NCBI GenBank assembly: GCA_964394085.1
Contig: CAYMWF010000020.1
Span: 11,615-75,614 of the forward strand
DNA length: 64,000 nucleotides
Reading direction: 5' to 3'
Origin: an uncultured Gemmatimonadota bacterium
GTDB lineage: Bacteria; GCA-2686955; CAYMWF01
Position numbers and translations under genes: made by a program. Shown one piece after another: positions 3,266 to 58,274 of this stretch. Within the stretch, counting starts at the first letter, position 1; each line of letters starts with the position of its first letter. A model generated the notes under the pieces. That model saw nothing but the letters and a program-made list of their open reading frames with translations. It was not told where the DNA came from and searched no databases.

Positions 3266-3410
3266 GCACAGGTGCGTCGAGCCGAGAGCACAGAGGACGG
3301 GGCCGCAGCCGGCAAAGGCGCGCAGAGCCGAGAGCACAGAGGACGGGGCCGCAGCCGGCACAGGTGCGTCGAGCCGCGAGCACAGAGGACGGGGCCGCAG
3401 CCGGCAAAGC
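3266..3410. repeat. Intergenic tandem repeat, 3 copies of a ~46-48-bp unit (core gagccgagagcacagaggacggggccgcagccggca)
   Basis: Direct inspection of the sequence between the IolD-like stop (3261) and the ALDH start (3481). The core contains a short GCCG..CGGC inverted repeat. Confidence 0.75.
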
Positions 3411-3480
3411 AGCATCGAGCAGCAGGCGCGAAGGCCGGAGCCGCACGTGACGATCAAGGTTAAATCCCGGGGAGTGAAGC

Positions 3481-36910: not shown

Positions 36911-37201
36911 ATGGTAAAAAAGTTACGACGGAAGAACAGCCCAGAGGAGAAAGTTTCGATTTTACGGAAGCATCTTCCGGGAGGAGTGCCGGTATCGGAT
37001 CTGTGTGATGAACATGGCCCTCATCAGAATGTGTTTTATCGATGGCAGAAGGCGTTTTTCGAACGCGGAGCCATGGGCTTTGATCACCGCACCCGAACAG
37101 AACATCGAAGGAGGAACGATCCCTTGTATGTACCGGGCGCTACGAGCACCGTGTCTCCATCCACGGCCGTTTCGACGGCGGGACGTATCGCGTTGAAATA
37201 A
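36911..37201 (+). mobile_element. IS3-family transposase OrfA-like fragment (HTH_Tnp_1), truncated
   Basis: NSPEEKVSILRKHLPGGVPVSDLCDEHGPHQNVFYRWQKAFFERGAMGF matches the IS3/IS911 OrfA pattern (SPEFK..AV.....G.SV.ELCRE.GIS..TFYRW.K....G..G). No OrfB or inverted repeats are seen, so it is likely a remnant. Confidence 0.55.
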
Positions 37202-37275: not shown

Positions 37276-38919
37276 TCACTTTGTATTCGAGAGTATGACT
37301 CCCCTGTTTACGATGCGGAACCGGTCGCTCTTCGATTCATCCCCCTGGAGGGCAGAGCCCCCAAGGCTGTCGGTAAAGATGTGAGCCACCGAGTCAGGAA
37401 TGATGAATCCGGGTCGCACAGACACCAGGCCGCAATATTCCCGGGCTCCCATGTCGGGGTTTTCACCGCAATAATACTCATCCAGTCCTGCTATCTTGAT
37501 GCCGGCGTCGATGCAGGGGGAATCTCCGGGCAGCAAAAAGGCCTTGTCAACATCGGTGAGCGGATCTTCGAATATCGAGCCTGCCCCGGGAATGTACACA
37601 TCGCCATCGGCATTGTTCCAGTAGCAGTTGTGGTGGTGCGGCGTTCCGAAGCCGTACGTCAACGCCCGGCCGGAGCGTGTTTCGAGAAATATGTTGTTTA
37701 TTACACCCCCCTCGGTTCTCAAGTGAGTCACGGAACCGCCATAGACTTCACCGTATATACCAGGATATGCGCCATTGCCGAAAAAGGTATTGTTGTAGAT
37801 CCCGGCAAATGCGTCATCTCCGAAACACTCGATGCCACCGCCGGAGCCGGAATACCAGTAGGTTCCCGCACGATTGAAAAGAAAGAGGTTCCCGTATATG
37901 AGGCTGCTGCACTCCTTCGATACCTTGATCGCGCCCCCGTTCTCGGCCTCGTTGCGAATGAACAGGTTGTTCCTGATCTCCGGTGAACCGTCCCTGATCT
38001 TCAGCGCCCCGCCGCAACTGCCGCTTTCTCCCGCTTCAACATGGGGCGCTGTATTGTTCGAGAACTCGTTATTGCATACGAGAAGCCCGTCGCAGTTTGA
38101 GAGGTGGAGTGCCCCGCCTTCTCCGCCGTCGTACTCTCCCCATTCCCTTTCGCCGAATGCAACGTTTCCCGTGAAACGGCAACCAGAGATTATGCCCCTG
38201 ACATTACTGATTGATCCCCCTCCCCCTCTCTGTGCTTCATTATTACTGATTATGCAATCACGCATCACAAGATCTGAACGGTATATATTCAGCCCACCAC
38301 CAGAACTATGATTGTTAATCGAACCGATGACGTTGTTTACGATTCTACAGTCGAGTATCTTCAAAGAAGACTCATTTGCATATATACCGCCTCCCAGTAG
38401 ATAATCATGCAAATATTCGGTTCCTCCCCCATTCCGCAAAGTCAGCCCTTCAAGTATGCTCGTAGTATCTTCGCCAGACAGAAACGTTACTACGCTGCCA
38501 ACCCCTCCTCCGTCAATTACAGTTTCCTCGGCTCCAGCTACACCCTTCACCACTATCGCCTTGCCGAGAAAATCGAGATGCTCGTAGTACGTGCCTGGAT
38601 ATACCAGCACGGTGTCCCCGTCCGAAGCGTGCTCGATGCACCACTGGATGGCCGGGTTGCCCGGCTTCGAATGCCAGATGCCGTCCGGGAGACCGGTAGA
38701 ATTTGAACAATCGTTGTTCTCATTGGGGATGGAGCCGGCGAAAGCGCATGCAGGCAGGAAAACCGTGAAAAAAATTCGGAGAAGCATACTTTTAAGCCGT
38801 TTCTTCCCTTGAAGACGAATAGGTGCTACTGTTTTAAAGACGTACTTATCCATTGTTTCCTCTCCAACATTATAACCGGAATTCCACCTGCATACCTCCG
38901 TGTATTCACACCTGCTCAA
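37276..38919 (-). CDS. Secreted right-handed parallel beta-helix repeat protein (paralog 6, divergent)
   Basis: Signal peptide MLLRIFFTVFLPACAFA, then NPAIQWCIEHASDGDTVLVYPGTYYEHLDFLGKAIVVKG, GGG-rung repeats, C-terminal PDMGAREY. Confidence 0.75.
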   Translation of the reverse strand: MSRCEYTEVCRWNSGYNVGEETMDKYVFKTVAPIRLQGKKRLKSMLLRIFFTVFLPACAFAGSIPNENNDCSNSTGLPDGIWHSKPGNPAIQWCIEHASDGDTVLVYPGTYYEHLDFLGKAIVVKGVAGAEETVIDGGGVGSVVTFLSGEDTTSILEGLTLRNGGGTEYLHDYLLGGGIYANESSLKILDCRIVNNVIGSINNHSSGGGLNIYRSDLVMRDCIISNNEAQRGGGGSISNVRGIISGCRFTGNVAFGEREWGEYDGGEGGALHLSNCDGLLVCNNEFSNNTAPHVEAGESGSCGGALKIRDGSPEIRNNLFIRNEAENGGAIKVSKECSSLIYGNLFLFNRAGTYWYSGSGGGIECFGDDAFAGIYNNTFFGNGAYPGIYGEVYGGSVTHLRTEGGVINNIFLETRSGRALTYGFGTPHHHNCYWNNADGDVYIPGAGSIFEDPLTDVDKAFLLPGDSPCIDAGIKIAGLDEYYCGENPDMGAREYCGLVSVRPGFIIPDSVAHIFTDSLGGSALQGDESKSDRFRIVNRGVILSNTK

Positions 38920-38932
38920 TTTGCAGGTTTAG

Positions 38933-41182
38933 CTAAGGACAGGCCCCCTCATCGAATCCATGAATGTATACGGCGGAGCAGTCGCCTCCGCCTTCATAGC
39001 AGGGCACTCTTTCCGGAATCGAGAAACCGGACACGGTCCCGTTCCAGGCGCTTCCCGATATATACCTCTCGAAAGCACCGTTTCGCATCCTTACAGCATC
39101 GGTCATCTCCAAGTATGGTTGTGGTTCGCCGTCCGGCACAGCCACCATGCAGGGGCTCAGAATGCCCCAGTTTTCCGTCTGTTTACGTGAATCAGATCTT
39201 TTTTTCTTCTCGCCATTATCATATTGGTGGTCGTAATATCCGTGATAGATATTCCCCAGAACCAGGTTGTAATCCGTGCCACCCAGTGTCACTGGGTCCA
39301 GGAGTATAGACGTTGCGATATCATAGTCGTTACCCCGGCCCAGGTGTTCAACGCCATTATCAGGATCGACCCAGGAATCGCTGAGACCTGATTCTGTATA
39401 ATGGTAATTGTTAGGGTTGAGACAATTGTTTTCTCCCTGGGACACCCCATGAGGGAAAGGAGCGTAACATACCTTTAACTTACCCGGTATCTGTTGTCCC
39501 TCTACTATGGGGCATTTAATAGTATCTCCCGGAACAACGAAGATATTGTAATCCATCAAGTTTTCCCAGTCGGCGTGGGATGTGAACTCTCCGTTCAATA
39601 CCGGCATGACCCTGCCTGAATTAGTAAAGACAAAATCCAGGCAGTCTTTATAATAGCCGAACTCGTCCTTGTACGAATGGTAAGTGTCATTGCCGGGAAT
39701 CTCCTCGGGTATTTTCGAATAGAACTGGCCTGTTATCGCATCGAAATCTTCGCCGGTAAACTCGTGGCCCCGTGCGTTGGCTATGCTTAACAGGATTGCT
39801 TTGCTGTCATCTATTCGCATAGCCTCCCAGTTGATATTCTCGCTGAATATCAGGTGGTTCTCATCGAAAAACCTGATGGCGTCGATCGCCGTCGAATGGT
39901 ACTCGTCCGATATCGCCACCTTGAATACCTCGGCGTCATCATCGGTGAGAACGTAACCGAGATCGGAATCCCAGTCACCCGTCAACCAGTCTCTCAATTC
40001 GTTCTCGTCACAGCCTTCAACAGGAGGGCAGTCATCCGGCGGATAACGGGTGATGTCTATGATGTCCTCCGGTACATTCGAATCGATGGTTTCGAGAAAA
40101 ACTTCTTCGCCGGTCGGCTCATTGCAATCGATAATGCAGAAATAGTCGATTCTGAAGCCCTCCTCGGTCTGATCATCATAGTATTCATCATTCCATGCTG
40201 CTACGGCATCATCATAATTACCTTCTTTTGCCACGTAGTGAACTTTCATGAGTTCCGCGAACTTATGCCGGGCCGGCGGCACCTTGGGGTCTTTGGAATC
40301 ATCATAATTACGACCGAGAAGCACTCGTATCCAGGGTCTGCGCTCGCCTATCCAGCACGGCGTGTCTTTCAGCTCCCATCCCCAGGGCACGTCGAACCCC
40401 AGGTTATAGCAGATAAGCGCACGTTCGTTGCACAGCCCGTTCGGGTTGTGACATTTCCAGAAACCGGGAACCTCGAGACTGTCGTTCGCAGCGTTGATTT
40501 CCGCATAGTCCAGGTCCTCATTATCACTGTAGTACCATCGTCCATGGTTTTCCGGATCTCCATCCGAAATGAAAAGGAACGCCCTGAAATACGCATCCCG
40601 CTCGAACTCATCGGAAAATACGTCGGGCACCATGCACAGGGAGATCTCAATCTTCAGAGGTTGAGAAAAGTACAAGTACGCTGTGTAAGGGAAAAATGGG
40701 TGAGGGTAATCATCCGGATAGTCATCATGATAATCAGGAAGCTCGTAGTTAACTACCTTATGTAGAAGCGTTGACGATCCGGCGTTGTAATACCTGTATC
40801 CGGTTGTAACCTGATCGTCGCAAAGTCTGGTATCGTAGTCATAATTTCCTTTGGCACTTTTGTTGAACCAGAGCGACTCTCCATAACCATCGAAACTGGA
40901 CCTTGAGCCTATGGTGTTGATGTTGTGAGAGAAGAGAAATTTTATCTGCGCTTCGGTCCAGGCGGTTTTACTGGCGACATAGGGAAATTCATCACCCTGA
41001 TAATAGCCGCACCAGGGGTGGCCTTCTGGCGGTGATTCATCACAACCGTCACGGAACATTCCACCGTTCACCAGGTCGCAGCCGAATATCATGAAGTCGT
41101 CGCCCGCGTCATCACCGTATTCAGGGATATCCGGGACCTTCAATATGAACCTTTTCAAGTCAGGATCCGACGGATAGATCAA
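38933..41182 (-). CDS. Large acidic Asp/Glu/Tyr/Trp-rich hypothetical secreted protein. The annotated start is TTG. The likely true start is ATG 41345, currently out of frame because of the (TCAC)8 tract.
   Basis: Low-GC 749-aa ORF. The frame is open upstream to 41347 with no start codon. ATG 41345 with a GGAGG RBS sits in the -1 frame; one fewer repeat unit would give an in-frame N-terminus MVRFFLTHS...VTVSFILLSGIICYPSVSHGE with signal-peptide character. Confidence 0.5.
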   Translation of the reverse strand: MIYPSDPDLKRFILKVPDIPEYGDDAGDDFMIFGCDLVNGGMFRDGCDESPPEGHPWCGYYQGDEFPYVASKTAWTEAQIKFLFSHNINTIGSRSSFDGYGESLWFNKSAKGNYDYDTRLCDDQVTTGYRYYNAGSSTLLHKVVNYELPDYHDDYPDDYPHPFFPYTAYLYFSQPLKIEISLCMVPDVFSDEFERDAYFRAFLFISDGDPENHGRWYYSDNEDLDYAEINAANDSLEVPGFWKCHNPNGLCNERALICYNLGFDVPWGWELKDTPCWIGERRPWIRVLLGRNYDDSKDPKVPPARHKFAELMKVHYVAKEGNYDDAVAAWNDEYYDDQTEEGFRIDYFCIIDCNEPTGEEVFLETIDSNVPEDIIDITRYPPDDCPPVEGCDENELRDWLTGDWDSDLGYVLTDDDAEVFKVAISDEYHSTAIDAIRFFDENHLIFSENINWEAMRIDDSKAILLSIANARGHEFTGEDFDAITGQFYSKIPEEIPGNDTYHSYKDEFGYYKDCLDFVFTNSGRVMPVLNGEFTSHADWENLMDYNIFVVPGDTIKCPIVEGQQIPGKLKVCYAPFPHGVSQGENNCLNPNNYHYTESGLSDSWVDPDNGVEHLGRGNDYDIATSILLDPVTLGGTDYNLVLGNIYHGYYDHQYDNGEKKKRSDSRKQTENWGILSPCMVAVPDGEPQPYLEMTDAVRMRNGAFERYISGSAWNGTVSGFSIPERVPCYEGGGDCSAVYIHGFDEGACP

Positions 41183-41297
41183 TGGATCGACGATTTCGGC
41201 GATACGGAACCATTCGGTAGGGTCACCGGTTTCTCCGTGGGAAACCGATGGGTAACAAATGATACCCGAAAGAAGTATAAAACTAACGGTTACCGAG

Positions 41298-41329
41298 GTG
41301 AGTGAGTGAGTGAGTGAGTGAGTGAGTGA
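41298..41329 (-). repeat. Tetranucleotide SSR (TCAC)8 on the coding strand, (GTGA)8 on plus
   Basis: Eight perfect units counted directly, 15 nt downstream of ATG 41345. Confidence 0.9.
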
Positions 41330-41830
41330 GGAAGAAACGTACCATACTTAACCTCCTTCCGACCGGCGCGTCAGAACGACCGGCCATCCTGATAAAATAA
41401 AAAGTAACCGGGATCATGCGGTAAGGCCAATGATGTTTTACCGGGTACGATCGTTTCATAACAACGACCTGAGTTTGACCTCCGTCGAAATCCGGGGGGA
41501 AGCTCAAACTTGTTCTCAAATAGTTGTAATTCCAAAACTCGCTTCCCCGCGCTTTTATCGCTTTTTTAAGGTCAAGGAAGCATGCGAGCTTCGCACATTA
41601 CATTACGTAATATAAAGAGGGCAGAAATCGGGATATCCGGGATGAAATTTTCAGTTTTTGTTATTTTTCTCGTAACATGGTGCTGTGCCGAGAGTTATAA
41701 TATTGTCTCTCCCAAGAACGATGAAACAGGCATTCTCAAGTATTCGCCTAAACAGCCGAACTGTGTGGAAATTCGGCTTTTTTCCCTGATCGCTTGACAA
41801 GATCGAGAGCTTAGGCTATTTTGACGAATC

Positions 41831-42514
41831 ATGAATCAGTTCGGTCAAAAAAGCGAACAGGATTTCCTTGCGGTAATCGGGGATCTCCGGCGTTCCCGGG
41901 AGGATCGTGAGCGCTTGCGCACCCAGACGCTCCTGGAGCGGGCCCTGAAAGAAGTGAACGCGACTTTCGCAGGCAACCTGTCTTCCCGGTTCATCATTAC
42001 ACTGGGTGACGAATTCCAGGGGCTTCTTCGAATGCCCTCGGGGATCTTCGATGTGATCAGGGAAATCGACCGGATTCTGGAGGGGCTGCCCCTTCGATAC
42101 GGTCTGGGGTGGGGGGCCCTGTCCACAGACCTGCGCGAGCAGGCCCTGGGCATGGACGGACCATGCTTCCACCGGGCGCGCGAGGCGATGGGTATCGCCA
42201 AACAAAAAGGCGAGTCCGTGGTAGTGGCGGGGTTCGGGCGTGAACAGGACGAGGCCATCAATCGAGTCCTGTTTTTGATGAACAGCGTGAAGAGTCGGTG
42301 GAAGCCCGCCCAGGCCGAGACCGTACGCCTCATGAGGACGGGCAGGATGCAGAAGGAGGTGGCCCGGCTGAGGGGAGTGTCGACCTCCGTGGTCAGCGAG
42401 ACCCTGAAGGCGGCGCAATACAGGAAACTGCACGGGGCCGAATCGGCCGTGAAAATCCTGATGGAGCTCTTTGCTGATCCGGCGAAACTTCAGAAAGTGG
42501 GAGAAACGGGATGA
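41831..42514 (+). CDS. SatD-family-like protein (partner of DUF3307)
   Basis: N-terminal AVIGDLRRSRE... pattern and an immediately downstream DUF3307-like membrane protein with a 4-nt overlap. A possible leaderless promoter is TTGACA(41796)-17-TATTTT. Confidence 0.45.
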   Translation: MNQFGQKSEQDFLAVIGDLRRSREDRERLRTQTLLERALKEVNATFAGNLSSRFIITLGDEFQGLLRMPSGIFDVIREIDRILEGLPLRYGLGWGALSTDLREQALGMDGPCFHRAREAMGIAKQKGESVVVAGFGREQDEAINRVLFLMNSVKSRWKPAQAETVRLMRTGRMQKEVARLRGVSTSVVSETLKAAQYRKLHGAESAVKILMELFADPAKLQKVGETG

Positions 42515-43281
42515 ACCTCCTCCTCAGCGTGGAGCCCATGGTTTTACGCTTCTTTCTCCTGCTCCTGGCGGGACACGTGCTCTCGGATTTCCTTTTCCAG
42601 ACCTCGGGCATTGCGAATAACAAGGGAAGCAGGTTCTCTGCGCTGCTCCTGCACGGAATGTGGACCTTCGCGGTTCATGCCGTGTTGCTGTTTCCCTTCT
42701 GGAACCGGCAGGCCCTCCTCTGGCTGCCGGCACTGGCTTTATCGCATATCGTCATCGATCGACTCAAGGCCGGTCTGCGCGGAGATGCGGAAAAAGCCTT
42801 CACGGGTTTCTTCGTGGACCAGGGCATTCACCTTGTGACACTGATCGCGCTGACCTGGATCGTGTCGGACACGGGGCATATGAGAAGACCTTCGATTGCG
42901 GCGGAGAACCTCGATGCTCTCGTCGGGATCATGGTCGTGGCGGCCGGTTTCGTTTTCAACGGAAAGGGGGGCACGGCGGTGGTCAGGCTGCTCCTGAATC
43001 GTTTCCCGACCATCAGCGATCCCCTGCGGAAAGATTCCGGCAGCACCTGCGCCATGGGCAGAACGATCGGAAACCTGGAGCGTTACATTCTCTTCGTCCT
43101 TGTCCTGCTCGGGCACTGGGGAGCCATCGGGTTCGTGATCGGCGCAAAGTCGATCGCCAGGTTCAAGGAGCTGGATGAGAAAGGCTTCGCGGATTACTAC
43201 CTTATCGGAACCCTCACCAGCGTCCTGGTCGCCCTGATCAGCGGGCTTTCGGTGAGCGCCCTGCTGGGGCTCCTCGACTGA
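42511..43281 (+). CDS. DUF3307-like integral membrane protein
   Basis: GHVLSDFLFQ motif near the N-terminus of a polytopic membrane protein. Confidence 0.5.
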   Translation: MNLLLSVEPMVLRFFLLLLAGHVLSDFLFQTSGIANNKGSRFSALLLHGMWTFAVHAVLLFPFWNRQALLWLPALALSHIVIDRLKAGLRGDAEKAFTGFFVDQGIHLVTLIALTWIVSDTGHMRRPSIAAENLDALVGIMVVAAGFVFNGKGGTAVVRLLLNRFPTISDPLRKDSGSTCAMGRTIGNLERYILFVLVLLGHWGAIGFVIGAKSIARFKELDEKGFADYYLIGTLTSVLVALISGLSVSALLGLLD

Positions 43282-47243: not shown

Positions 47244-49844
47244 CTAGAGGGGCTGTTTCTGGATTTTAAACGGCCTCTTCCACTCGCTGAGCTCCAGGAA
47301 GGTTACACCGTTCACCCGAAGCGGGATTTCGAGGTCGAGATGCCCGTAGGGCGCCAGGCGGTTCGCCGGGGGCGCGTCTTCGACCAGGTCGTCCGTCTCC
47401 TGGAGCTGAACCACGTCTTCGGGGTCGTAGACCGGTTTCACGGGCAGGGCCTGGTAGGCGTGGTACGGGCTCGAGTGGTCGCGGTCGACGCGCCACCGCC
47501 GGACGGTGACGGCCGACCAGGGGATCCGGTCGAGGGAAAGCTGAACGGTGAATTCCGTCTCCTCGGATGATTCGGTATCGTACTTGTCGTGACTGTAGAG
47601 GAGGATTCCGTGGCGCTCGGGAGCAACGCTCCTGAAACCGCCGAAGCGGATCCCTTCGATCGATTGCGGCTGGAGAGCATCGAGGTTCCGGTTCATGTGG
47701 GCGAGCAGCTCGATGAAGTTGAAGATGCCCTTCCTGATCGTAACGATGCGGTCCTCCTCCCCGTCTCCGTTGTCGTCGACCCTGATGAGGCCGGTCACCG
47801 AACTCAGTCCCTGGCCGTTGTAGTCGAAGGGCCAGACCGTGAGCACGGCCTCGTGACGGGCATACCTCGGATCCGCCTCGGCCTCGATTATCATCCTGCC
47901 GATCCAGTCGGCGCACCAGGTGGGGAAGTATCCGTTCCCCTCGTAGATCCGGCCCGAAGCGGGATCCGGACGGGGAATCCAGTCCGGAGTGCACTCGAAG
48001 GAGGTTACGTTCAGGGAATCGTAATAATCGGGATCGATTGCGAGGGCCTTGTCGCGCAGCCAGGTCATGTCCTCCACGGCCTCGGAGGCGTGGCGGTACT
48101 CGTGCATCGAAACGAAGTCGAGGGGCGATCCTTTACCGCTGTATTCGCCGCAGAGCCGGGCGACTCTTTCGGACAGCTTGTCGTCGAACTCGGGGTTCGC
48201 GCAGACGAAGTTCTGTTCGGCGATGCCGCCGCCCGGCTTGTTCACCGCGCCCGAGCAGTGGTAGTAGGCGTCCTGGGTCCAGGTCCGTCCGCCCAGCCAG
48301 GCGGCCTCGATGCCTCCGACCTGCACCCGCTCCGCATCCAGCCCCCGATCCTCGAAGGCCGTGAGAAAAGCGTTAACGGAATAATCGTAGAACTCGTAGA
48401 ATTCGTTCTTCGTGCCTGACCAGAAGTGCCCGATGAAGTTGTTCTCGTTGCCGACGGAGTAATAAAAATCGGTGACGGGTTCGCCGTAGCGGTCGATGAG
48501 GTGGAAGGTCAGCTCCCTGACGAAATCGTGCCACTGGAGGTAATTTTTCGGCGGCGAGATGCTTCCGTGGCCGCCGATGCTTCCCGGAACCGGTTCCCGG
48601 GCGAGGTCGAGGGGCACGTAGGAGAGGTTGACCTGGAGGCGCCTGCCGTGCTGCCCGTGGACGATGTCCCACTCGTCGTCGATCCTGGTCCAGTAATAGA
48701 CCTGCGTGCCGATCGGATCGAACTTTCTCAGGTAGCAGAGAGGGAGCGTGAAATTGTCCGGGGTTTCGGGGATGTCCGGGGGATGTGAGCCCGGATAGTC
48801 GAGAATCCAGCTCGAGGGCGGGTTCTCGAGTTTCGTTACGGCGGCGATCTTCAGCGAATCGTCGACCGCGACGATGGTTGCGGTTTCGAACTTCTCCCTG
48901 TCGGCGACGGTGATTACGTCGCCCGGGAAATAATCTCCCGAGAGGGGCCTGTCCGGTGGGATGCCGTAGAGAGGCCCCTCCTCGAGATCCGTAACCTGCA
49001 GCAGGGTCTGATCGCCGTCGTTGCCGATCCAGATGATCTGGCGCGTCTCGATCTCGCGCACCGGGTTCGGATTGCCGTCGAAGACGCCGTTGTGCCAGTA
49101 GTCGCTCGTGAGGGGCCAGTCCCGCTGCAGCGACCAGGCATCCGGGTTGATGGCGTTGACCGAATCCATCAAAACGTAGGAGTCGAGCTGGTCGAAGAGC
49201 CGGCTCGTGTCGAAATCCGGCTTGAGAAGACCGCTGAAGAACCAGCCCTCCCAGTGGACCGTCGGGCCGCCGAGGTCGACGTCCCACGACACCGCCGGAT
49301 TCTCGATAACCGGCCGGGTGGTGAACGACCAGGAATCGAGCGACGGGTTTATGGGAACGCCGTCCCGGGTCTCCGCGTAGACTTCGACGGTGTAGGTTCT
49401 CGCGGGATCGAGGGTTCTGTCCGAGGCGACGTAGACGGCGTCTCCGTTGAAGTCTCCGCTGTCGATCCCTTCGATAATCTCTCCCTCGAATCCCGGGGCG
49501 AAGACGCCGCCCGGCAGCAGGACGGGAACCGGCCCGCCTCCCGCGGGGATAAGGACGGCGGTGGTTTGATCCGTGGCGATCTTACCCTCTTCTCCATTGG
49601 AATCGGGCACGATTACCTCGAAGTATACACTGGTCCGGGTTGTTACGTCCGCCCGGTTCTTGTAAGGCCGCGGGACGGGGTTCAACTGGTTGGCGAAGTT
49701 CAACCTCGGCGCATCGCTTGCCAGGGAGGAACCCGCGAGGACCAGGGCAAGAAGGAGTATCGCCGCTGCCGTCGTGTCCCTGCCGAAAAAATTCCGAGTC
49801 TTACACCCGGGAGTATTGCAGAAATCAAAACCGCTCTTTTTCAT
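47244..49844 (-). CDS. Secreted hypothetical protein, putative GH-A clan glycoside hydrolase-like
   Basis: Signal peptide. A GH-A-like acid/base motif YYSVGNENNF followed by DFVSMHEY (H.Y). Otherwise unassigned. Many antisense ORFs here are judged spurious. Confidence 0.35.
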   Translation of the reverse strand: MKKSGFDFCNTPGCKTRNFFGRDTTAAAILLLALVLAGSSLASDAPRLNFANQLNPVPRPYKNRADVTTRTSVYFEVIVPDSNGEEGKIATDQTTAVLIPAGGGPVPVLLPGGVFAPGFEGEIIEGIDSGDFNGDAVYVASDRTLDPARTYTVEVYAETRDGVPINPSLDSWSFTTRPVIENPAVSWDVDLGGPTVHWEGWFFSGLLKPDFDTSRLFDQLDSYVLMDSVNAINPDAWSLQRDWPLTSDYWHNGVFDGNPNPVREIETRQIIWIGNDGDQTLLQVTDLEEGPLYGIPPDRPLSGDYFPGDVITVADREKFETATIVAVDDSLKIAAVTKLENPPSSWILDYPGSHPPDIPETPDNFTLPLCYLRKFDPIGTQVYYWTRIDDEWDIVHGQHGRRLQVNLSYVPLDLAREPVPGSIGGHGSISPPKNYLQWHDFVRELTFHLIDRYGEPVTDFYYSVGNENNFIGHFWSGTKNEFYEFYDYSVNAFLTAFEDRGLDAERVQVGGIEAAWLGGRTWTQDAYYHCSGAVNKPGGGIAEQNFVCANPEFDDKLSERVARLCGEYSGKGSPLDFVSMHEYRHASEAVEDMTWLRDKALAIDPDYYDSLNVTSFECTPDWIPRPDPASGRIYEGNGYFPTWCADWIGRMIIEAEADPRYARHEAVLTVWPFDYNGQGLSSVTGLIRVDDNGDGEEDRIVTIRKGIFNFIELLAHMNRNLDALQPQSIEGIRFGGFRSVAPERHGILLYSHDKYDTESSEETEFTVQLSLDRIPWSAVTVRRWRVDRDHSSPYHAYQALPVKPVYDPEDVVQLQETDDLVEDAPPANRLAPYGHLDLEIPLRVNGVTFLELSEWKRPFKIQKQPL

Positions 49845-49942: not shown

Positions 49943-50115
49943 TTCTCCTTGTGGAGAAAATGGGCGGACGGAGAAGCCGCCCGCGGCAGAGTAAAAAGCC
50001 CAGCCTGGTTTACATAATATTTCTTCACACGGAGAAAATGGGCGGACGGAGAAGCCGCCCGCGGCAAAGTAAAAAGCCCAGCCTGGTTTACATAATATTT
50101 CTTCACACGGAGAAA
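49943..50115. repeat. About 2.5 tandem copies of a ~71-bp unit, each carrying a degenerate TTTCTYCAC-GGAGAAAA motif
   Basis: Unit ...atatttcttcacacggagaaaatgggcggacggagaagccgcccgcggcaRagtaaaaagcccagcctggtttacataat. Divergent region between the 49844 (minus) and 50309 (plus) genes. Confidence 0.8.
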
Positions 50116-50308
50116 ATTCTCAGTATGAGCCGCGACCCTGTGGCGAGAGAAAAATACAGGCATCAACTTCGCCCCGTCCGCGTCAGAAAAGCTGAACATC
50201 GTTGAATTCGGCTGGTGCCTTTTGCCCTTTGCACTGCAGAGGGAAAATGGATTATACTTGATAAAGGGCTGACATACTTGATAACCGGCCAACGACTGGG
50301 AGTCATCC

Positions 50309-58052: not shown

Positions 58053-58274
58053 CCGAGGATCACGGAGCCCACGAGGATCACGGAACCCGCGAGGATCACG
58101 GAACCCACGAGGATCACGGAACCCGCGAGGATCACGGGGATCACGGAGCCCACGTGGATTACGGAGCCCACGGGGATCGCGGAACCCACGGGGATCATGG
58201 AACCCACGAGGATCGCGGAACCCACGGGGATCATGGAACCCACGAGGATCACGGAACCCACGAGGATCACGGGG
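58053..58274. repeat. About 12 copies of an 18-bp tandem repeat (consensus cgaggatcacggaaccca) between hypC and hypD
   Basis: Units counted directly. One plus-strand frame is open across the array and encodes a His-rich (HEDHGT)n peptide. Confidence 0.9.

Follow-up and report, generated by a model that had tools for sequence, protein, structure and literature searches.

Background

In the opa genes of Neisseria, CTCTT pentamers form a pyrimidine-rich, frame-shifting coding repeat in the leader region; the number of units sets translation ON or OFF, and the residues encoded by the repeat leave with the leader (PMC3745409). The opa family also has homologues with tracts below the cut-off for phase variation (PMC5953494). 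The lic1, hgp, mod and other loci of Haemophilus influenzae carry a tetranucleotide tract in the 5' coding region with three phases, one of them ON, and their tract lengths vary from strain to strain (PMC2651432; PMC11868660). A third group is formed by the surface genes of Campylobacter and Neisseria with poly-G/C runs. Where are such loci found? SSR contingency loci have been documented almost entirely in host-adapted pathogens and commensals; database bias is one suggested explanation, and examples from ocean and soil have been anticipated (PMC11868660). A tract is counted as phase-variable from five units upwards for tetranucleotides, from three for units of 5-9 nt and, as in PhasomeIt, from nine bases for poly-G, and groups of phase-variable genes typically include homologues in which the tract is absent, mutated or below these cut-offs (PMC5953494).

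The locus described here lies in a stretch of 64,000 nucleotides from an uncultured bacterium, called the window below. Like the opa genes it has a pyrimidine-rich repeat in a leader that is predicted to be cleaved off, and like the H. influenzae loci it has a 5' coding tetranucleotide tract whose length differs between related alleles. There are also clear differences. Opa is an outer-membrane beta-barrel adhesin of an obligate human pathogen, encoded by a multi-copy gene family with a 5-nt unit, whereas here the product models as a soluble protein with a GH-A-like fold, the host is an uncultured, probably marine anaerobe, the unit has 4 nt and a single locus per contig is seen. H. influenzae is host-adapted and has a genome-wide phasome with measured switching rates, in contrast to the single locus per contig here. 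As for poly-G, the subfamilies of L089/L091 and L090 use G8-G12 inside the ORF, but this is a device of relatives and not of the window gene, and it encodes a Gly-rich boundary between the h- and c-regions. No homology to the Opa outer-membrane proteins was found, since the protein has no Pfam match and its predicted fold is a GH-A TIM barrel. The window locus is an analogue of the Opa-type leader repeat, not a member of that group; it works like the opa, H. influenzae and poly-G systems and is homologous to none of them.

Architecture of the proposed switch region

On the minus strand of the window the order of elements is GGAAGGAGGTTAAGT-ATG-GTACGTTTCTTCC-(TCAC)8-CTCGGTAACCGTTAG. The Shine-Dalgarno (SD) motif GGAGG (41356-41352), read directly from the DNA, lies 6 nt 5' of the start and is kept in four of the four TCAC-type alleles. 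It is followed by the start codon ATG 41345-41343, which together with the basic n-region MVRFF and one extra base spans 41330..41345; the same leader occurs in L002, L004 and L085/L086. Next comes the proposed switch, the (TCAC)8 slippage tract (41298..41329), which encodes (LTHS)n and is in frame if n = 1 mod 3. In the large frame the hydrophobic core and cleavage region of the signal peptide, SVTVSFILLSGIICYPSVSHG|E, occupies 41234..41296 by Kyte-Doolittle analysis, and the mature secreted protein of about 766 aa plus stop occupies 38933..41233. On the other side of the ribosome-binding site, an untranslated 5' leader (41357..41394) is conserved with the relatives L002 and L004 at about 80%. 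Tandem Repeats Finder gave the tract 8.2 copies with 100% matches and reported it as the sole tetranucleotide array in the 64-kb window.

How does the number of units determine the product? In a scripted re-translation with n from 3 to 14, the eight units as sequenced give MVRFFLTHSLTHSLTHLGNR*, a 20-aa peptide ending at the TAG in 41283..41285 (minus strand). With n of 4, 7, 10 or 13 an ORF of 798-810 aa is obtained (802 aa at n = 7, 806 aa at n = 10), and all remaining values give at most 28 aa. The large frame is open 5' as far as the TAA at 41350-41348, and it has no ATG, GTG or TTG between that TAA and TTG 41182. An earlier note on this DNA had proposed a phase-variation switch here on the basis of the positions of GGAGG, ATG 41345 and the perfect (TCAC)8, an early stop after the repeat, a large ORF open to TAA 41350 yet startless before TTG 41182, and fusion of the two at 7 or 10 units. 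On re-reading the minus strand every one of these coordinates was correct, and the frame arithmetic on which the proposal hinged was reproduced by recomputation, including the long read-through ORF that it expected on removal of one unit. A change in unit count thus toggles between full-length and truncated product, which defines translational phase variation by an SSR, and the tract is a perfect repeat above the cut-off, located 5' in the ORF, with a unit length not divisible by 3.

Start of the gene and signal peptide

Is ATG 41345 the true start? The evidence comes from the N-terminus, the alignment with a homologue, the conserved 5' block and the strength of the SD. The repaired N-terminus reads MVRFF-(LTHS)n-LTSVTVSFILLSGIICYPSVSHG|ETGDP. 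In a heuristic check its core VSFILLSGIIC reaches a Kyte-Doolittle 11-residue maximum of 2.60, one basic residue (R3) and zero acidic residues stand ahead of the core, and the predicted cleavage site S-H-G|E has small residues at -3 and -1, as in Sec-type signal peptides. By the same heuristic, every repaired N-terminus in the family looks like a signal peptide. The 35%-identical homologue, whose own hydrophobic leader ends ANA|E, aligns from the predicted cleavage point on (EDDWFELKYIVDP vs ETGDPTEWFRIAEIVDP). At the DNA level, three relatives conserve, at about 80% identity, a block that starts about 50 nt 5' of the ATG and runs as far as the first repeat unit; the DNA 5' of this block is unconserved. 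An SD-like motif was found in 11 of the 20 window genes checked, and since about half of the genes use SD, GGAGG-N6-ATG is a strong start. In addition, the (TCAC)6 allele of L085/L086 keeps one continuous frame from this MVRFF leader through to the signal peptide. On these grounds ATG 41345 is the gene start, which the (TCAC)8 state separates from its ORF. The tract sits between MVRFF and the hydrophobic core, the position of an Opa-type leader repeat. The signal peptide that the earlier note predicted for the repaired N-terminus is recovered by this heuristic, basic n-region, core and small residues at the cut alike, and with it the whole architecture of a slipped-strand switch: SD, ATG, short basic leader, frame-shifting SSR, signal-peptide core and mature protein.

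A second ATG lies at 41385-41387 (minus strand), 42 nt 5' of ATG 41345 and in the same frame (MAGRSDAPVGRRLSM-VRFF...). It has no SD at the proper distance; in the window, L002 and L004 no stop codon interrupts the frame from one ATG to the other. Because both ATGs lie 5' of the repeat, the phase logic is unaffected by the choice between them. A promoter scan of the minus strand 5' of the switch gene found no site above background. The gene is divergent from a SatD + DUF3307 (SatC-like) gene pair (41831-43281), and the only sigma-70-like promoter matches fall in the 475 nt that separate the gene from this pair, on the plus strand.

The family and its repeat tracts

A word-indexed search of 5.8 billion proteins returned four relatives, and a full HMM scan of 1.84 billion representative proteins gave a family of 23 hits; P0011 and P0012 were the only additions from a word-indexed search with the 16-sequence family alignment. 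The family alignment found no relatives in the GTDB species genomes or the JGI metagenome collection, and by exact scan the conserved leader is absent from JGI contigs. The DNA of all reachable members was collected, and the phase of each locus was computed from the SD-proximal ATG.

In the window and in L003 the tract is (TCAC)8, the phase is OFF and the body is intact. L003 comes from the same strain (1 mismatch in 21.8 kb) and is the only other assembly of it. L004 (77% identity) has (TCAC)3 and is OFF. L002 (80%) has at least 14.5 TCAC units, and its phase is not readable because of a 100-N scaffold gap inside the tract, in which the scaffold broke. L085/L086, from two samples, have (TCAC)6 and are ON, with a 3' flank unlike that of the window. 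The counts among related alleles (77-81% protein identity) are therefore 3, 6, 8 and at least 14.5. The earlier note had suggested counting units across related strains and assemblies; the counts differ between these related alleles, and the two assemblies of the window's strain both have 8 units.

More distant members carry other tracts. L001 (35%) has (GCTCTCA)5 plus a 6/7 unit (x5.9) and is OFF from its GGAGG-N6-ATG; two other starts, a TTG located 11 nt past the SD and an ATG lacking an SD, share the frame of its ORF. L087 (about 25%) has (CTTC)5 after ATG AGA ACG AAA (MRTK) and is OFF. L091/L092 have G8 and are ON; L089, which has 73% DNA identity to L091, has G9 and is OFF at 2.9x coverage; and L090 has G12 at a position that differs from that of the L089/L091 run, OFF at 3.9x coverage. 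L088 has no SSR and is interrupted by an in-frame TGA in the leader. Altogether, at least five lineages carry such a repeat, and five different frame-shifting tracts occur in the signal-peptide-coding region in divergent branches of the family. Units of 4 and 7 nt are placed between the n- and h-regions, where they encode Leu, Ser, Thr, His, Ala, Pro and Phe; the poly-G runs sit at the boundary of the h- and c-regions and encode Gly. Both placements are tolerated, as the leader is cleaved off. The tracts of the window, L002, L085, L087, L001, L089 and L090 are above the cut-offs, and those of L004 (3 units) and L091 (G8, below G9) are under them. Such sub-cut-off homologues beside long-tract members are the same pattern as described for phase-variable gene groups in PMC5953494.

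Gene calls within the heptanucleotide cluster also differ. Among its members, which share at least 90% identity, some have calls of 794/800 aa and two have calls of 746 aa; the longer calls begin 5' of the heptamer repeat and the shorter from a TTG past the signal peptide. Judging from these protein start positions, a different heptamer phase would produce exactly this difference: a TGA lies just 5' of the repeat in the third phase, so 746-aa calls are what that phase is expected to give.

Could tracts of this kind arise by chance? Not a single tetranucleotide tract of at least 4 units occurs in 237 kb from 80 unrelated loci of diverse uncultured bacteria, and the same 237 kb contain one heptanucleotide tract of at least 5 units. 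Likewise, the window and ten non-redundant family contigs (164 kb) have no 4-nt tracts of at least 4 units or 7-nt tracts of at least 3 units besides the 5' ones. A chance origin of the tract is excluded in practice, given that tetranucleotide tracts of at least 4 units are lacking both in this background and elsewhere in the 164 kb.

In L088 (4887-5003), GGAGG-N5-ATG in the ORF frame is followed by a TGA after a T7 run (…HPFF*RYALFSHFLFLAF…). The T7 run was rejected because T6 and T8 also give stops, the lesion being the in-frame TGA itself; this could be a nonsense mutation, read-through or a mis-assembly, and three more cluster members are called identically. Differences of start calls among L093-L098 were rejected as length variation, since the six assemblies are identical there.

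The gene product

The protein of the switch gene has no Pfam family at E <=0.01 and no PDB sequence match better than E 0.1. A structure prediction with a 4-sequence alignment gave a pLDDT of 27.6, and diverse members from the profile search were needed. With the 16-sequence alignment, AlphaFold gave a pTM of 0.75 and a mean pLDDT of 64 with a confident alternating beta/alpha core. The top 17 PDB matches in Foldseek are all GH50 enzymes (Aga50D exo-beta-agarase, AgWH50C, PfGH50B and BpGH50), with E down to 3e-7 and 7-18% identity. The protein thus models as a clan GH-A TIM-barrel glycosidase with a predicted (beta/alpha)8 barrel, GH50 being nearest. At the sequence level membership of GH50 or clan GH-A was not found, and the protein differs from the GH50 beta-agarases and clan GH-A in having no Pfam or PDB sequence match and no conserved candidate Glu. 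E486 (FSENINW) and E570 (LNGEFT) are located at strand ends, in the positions that the acid/base and the nucleophile occupy in GH-A enzymes; since neither is invariant in the 16-sequence family alignment, the Glu pair is a candidate and catalysis is only putative.

The cassette and its neighbourhood

The switch gene has a partner. A second gene on the minus strand (37276..38853) encodes a 525-aa right-handed beta-helix protein (Pfam Beta_helix, E 3e-9) with its own SD (GGAGAGG) and a predicted signal peptide. Wherever a locus extends far enough, the family gene is followed on its 3' side by a beta-helix gene or an unannotated ORF. On the plus strand an IS3-type transposase OrfA remnant of only 96 aa (36911..37201; Pfam HTH_Tnp_1, E 2e-9) flanks the cassette. 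The remnant is where the earlier note had it, and the composition it gave for the gene was right as well: the region has a GC content of 0.49-0.50 vs 0.58 for the window, and the protein is acidic and rich in Tyr (D 10.6%, E 7.1%, Y 6.5%, W 2.2%).

In the four loci tested, cassette GC was always lower than that of the flanks, by 1-9 points (7-9 on the left, 1-9 on the right). The cassettes in the window (37276-41356), L001, L002 and L088 have a GC content of 0.50-0.54 vs 0.55-0.62 for the flanks. The neighbourhood of the cassette differs in every genome; near the cassette of L002 there is an IS200-type Y1_Tnp gene, as there is the IS3 OrfA remnant in the window. Low GC, shifting neighbourhoods and adjacent IS genes suggest horizontal mobility. 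No relatives were found in plasmid or phage collections, and an origin from such a mobile element has no support.

Several further observations concern the surroundings of other members. The degraded copy in L093-L098 still adjoins a 999-aa beta-helix gene, and a neighbour gene there has a T9SS Por_Secre_tail domain, a hint that the host belongs to the FCB group. In L091 a gene for a PMP/beta-helix surface protein contains, in its 3' part, a G9 run (1327-1335) that is in frame; this run was rejected as a second switch, because G8 or G10 would truncate only the last ~75 residues. After the stop of that gene there is a perfect (CCTCTCCC)4 tract (1567-1598). The L091 contig is unusually rich in homopolymers of at least 8 bases, and the organism may have more slippage-prone loci. 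In L089 a G8 run (3386-3393) is found inside the gene 3' of the family member, the position of the cassette partner.

Organism and habitat

Among the other products of the window are many beta-helix/PMP-repeat proteins, a GH39 enzyme, a sigma-54 activator, a 7TMR-DISM cyclase and HypF, HypD and HypE. Among 185,579 GTDB species representatives the best match of HypD is 67% identical and belongs to a MAG from a sediment metagenome; there is no close reference genome. The contigs come from assemblies named SUTE22-1_SAMN102318xx/319xx. As SAMN10231904, in the same accession range, is an oxygen-deficient marine water-column sample (PMC12220078), the samples probably came from an oxygen-deficient marine water column, judging by the accession of that neighbouring BioSample.

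The window has other repeats. An 18-nt unit (CGAGGATCACGGAACCCA) is repeated about 12.7 times at 58054-58272, just 5' of HypD; one of its frames reads as the His-rich hexapeptide D-H-G-T-H-E, and the repeat may encode the His-rich, metal-binding part of a nickel-insertion protein for hydrogenase, for example HypB. A 78-nt unit occurs in 2.1 copies with 98% identity at 49953-50117, between the GH39 gene (47244-49844, minus strand) and an LVIVD-repeat gene (from 50309, plus strand). A purine-rich tandem repeat of 46 nt (or 92 nt), with about 3.4 copies at 84-88% identity, is found at 3266-3445 between TPP-enzyme and aldehyde dehydrogenase genes.

Switch or pseudogene

There is a further question to consider: is the window copy a switch in its OFF phase or simply a dead gene? 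On the second account, slippage killed the gene; the repeat would be a mutational hot spot with no adaptive role, the window allele a recent one-unit gain and its decay already under way. Decay is certainly seen in the family. The in-phase copies L085/L086 have at least 3 frameshifts in the body, and in L091/L092, also in phase, homology is lost past about aa 520. The six identical assemblies L093-L098 hold a copy of which the N-terminal ~160 aa are missing and pieces of 197 and 342/346 aa remain. Such damage indicates that gene loss is common in the family, which makes a pseudogene a real rival for the window copy. In its favour are also the in-frame TGA in the leader of L088, the 8 units in both assemblies of the same strain, and the fact that, among the loci obtained, both in-phase alleles belong to damaged genes and an intact body was never seen in phase. 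Against it, at least six copies (the window gene, L002, L001, L087, L089 and L090) are free of further lesions along 2.2-2.4 kb, and the bodies of the out-of-phase copies are intact at 720-800 codons. The dN/dS ratios (Nei-Gojobori) are 0.23 for the window vs L002, 0.23 for the window vs L004 and 0.22 for L002 vs L004, with dS of about 0.5; these values show purifying selection on the gene body, which has no stops over 2.3 kb and stays functional despite the OFF state. The cassette partner gene is intact as well. Five SSR types arising independently at one functional position, and the absence of such tracts elsewhere, are hard to explain without selection. We therefore regard the pseudogene account as unlikely, though it is the strongest of the rivals.

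Further points weigh against the switch: L004 is OFF with 3 units only, under the mutability cut-off, and the OFF poly-G alleles of L089 and L090 come from contigs of 3-4x coverage. The strongest support for the switch is comparative. Different SSRs are found at the same functional position in divergent members; the TCAC tract is dynamic between conserved flanks, with counts of 3, 6, 8 and at least 14.5; and G8 stands against G9 in genes with 73% DNA identity. For these reasons the comparative data support, at the level of the family, the reading of these loci as probable switches.

Might the units have been miscounted, the true tract having 7 or 10 units and the gene being ON? Short-read assemblers do mishandle tandem repeats, and the scaffold of L002 broke in its tract. 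But the 32-nt tract is well inside read and k-mer length, the two assemblies agree on 8 units with identical flanks, and the clustered proteins of the strain from ENA, JGI and NCBI are every one called from 3' of the repeat, so that a miscount is very improbable. Wherever the strain has been assembled, its population consensus is OFF. Least probable of all is a further rival, in which the present allele already yields the protein, whether through programmed ribosomal frameshifting on the repeat or through initiation at the internal TTG 41182, and the repeat has no bearing on expression. Gene callers do give a 741-/749-aa product from TTG 41182 or a nearby start, but this TTG has no SD, its product would miss the signal peptide and 17 conserved mature residues kept by homologues, no known frameshift-stimulating signal is present, and Rfam finds nothing in the window. 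A tRNA scan of the window was also empty.

Discussion

Weighing these readings, we consider it likely that the locus is a genuine, selected contingency switch of translational SSR phase variation, presently OFF. In the proposed mechanism, slipped-strand mispairing during replication would add or remove 4-nt TCAC units. With n = 1 mod 3 (7 or 10 units) the ribosome would read into the signal peptide and the mature protein of about 766 aa, which would be exported; with any other n, translation would end within 5 codons past the tract. There would then be three translational phases, one of them ON, and the sequenced n = 8 would be an OFF state one unit from ON. The residues encoded by the repeat would sit in the cleaved leader, so that the length of the tract would be free to vary while the mature protein is unchanged. 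This scheme presumes a useful slippage rate in the host, reversion of OFF cells and selection on switching. Why should such a gene be gated? One possible reason is that the cassette encodes a costly or exposed pair of secreted carbohydrate-active enzymes.

The finding also bears on annotation. Gene callers misannotate the genes of this family as N-terminally truncated, signal-less proteins, and metagenome surveys of secretomes and CAZymes will consequently miss them.

The slippage mechanism is known. New are the host, the class of gene involved and the way in which different repeats have spread convergently through a single family. The window locus is credible as a contingency locus sequenced in its OFF state, and both its organism and its gene class are unusual. 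Going by the model, the gated gene codes for a secreted glycosidase-like enzyme; it is neither an adhesin gene nor one for LPS or restriction-modification. Both this class, secreted GH-like enzymes, and this setting, an uncultured and probably pelagic anaerobe, are hardly covered in the phase-variation literature (PMC11868660). The convergent gain of different repeats is comparative evidence for selection that is obtained free of culture. A broader proposal, which we put forward tentatively and at somewhat less than even odds, is that a family of secreted carbohydrate-active cassettes in uncultured bacteria of marine anoxic waters has repeatedly evolved slippage switches in the signal peptide. 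If it is true, it would mean contingency-locus bet-hedging outside host-microbe conflict, for example if a costly 'public-good' exoenzyme, or a surface enzyme exposed to phages or grazers on marine particles, is controlled stochastically.
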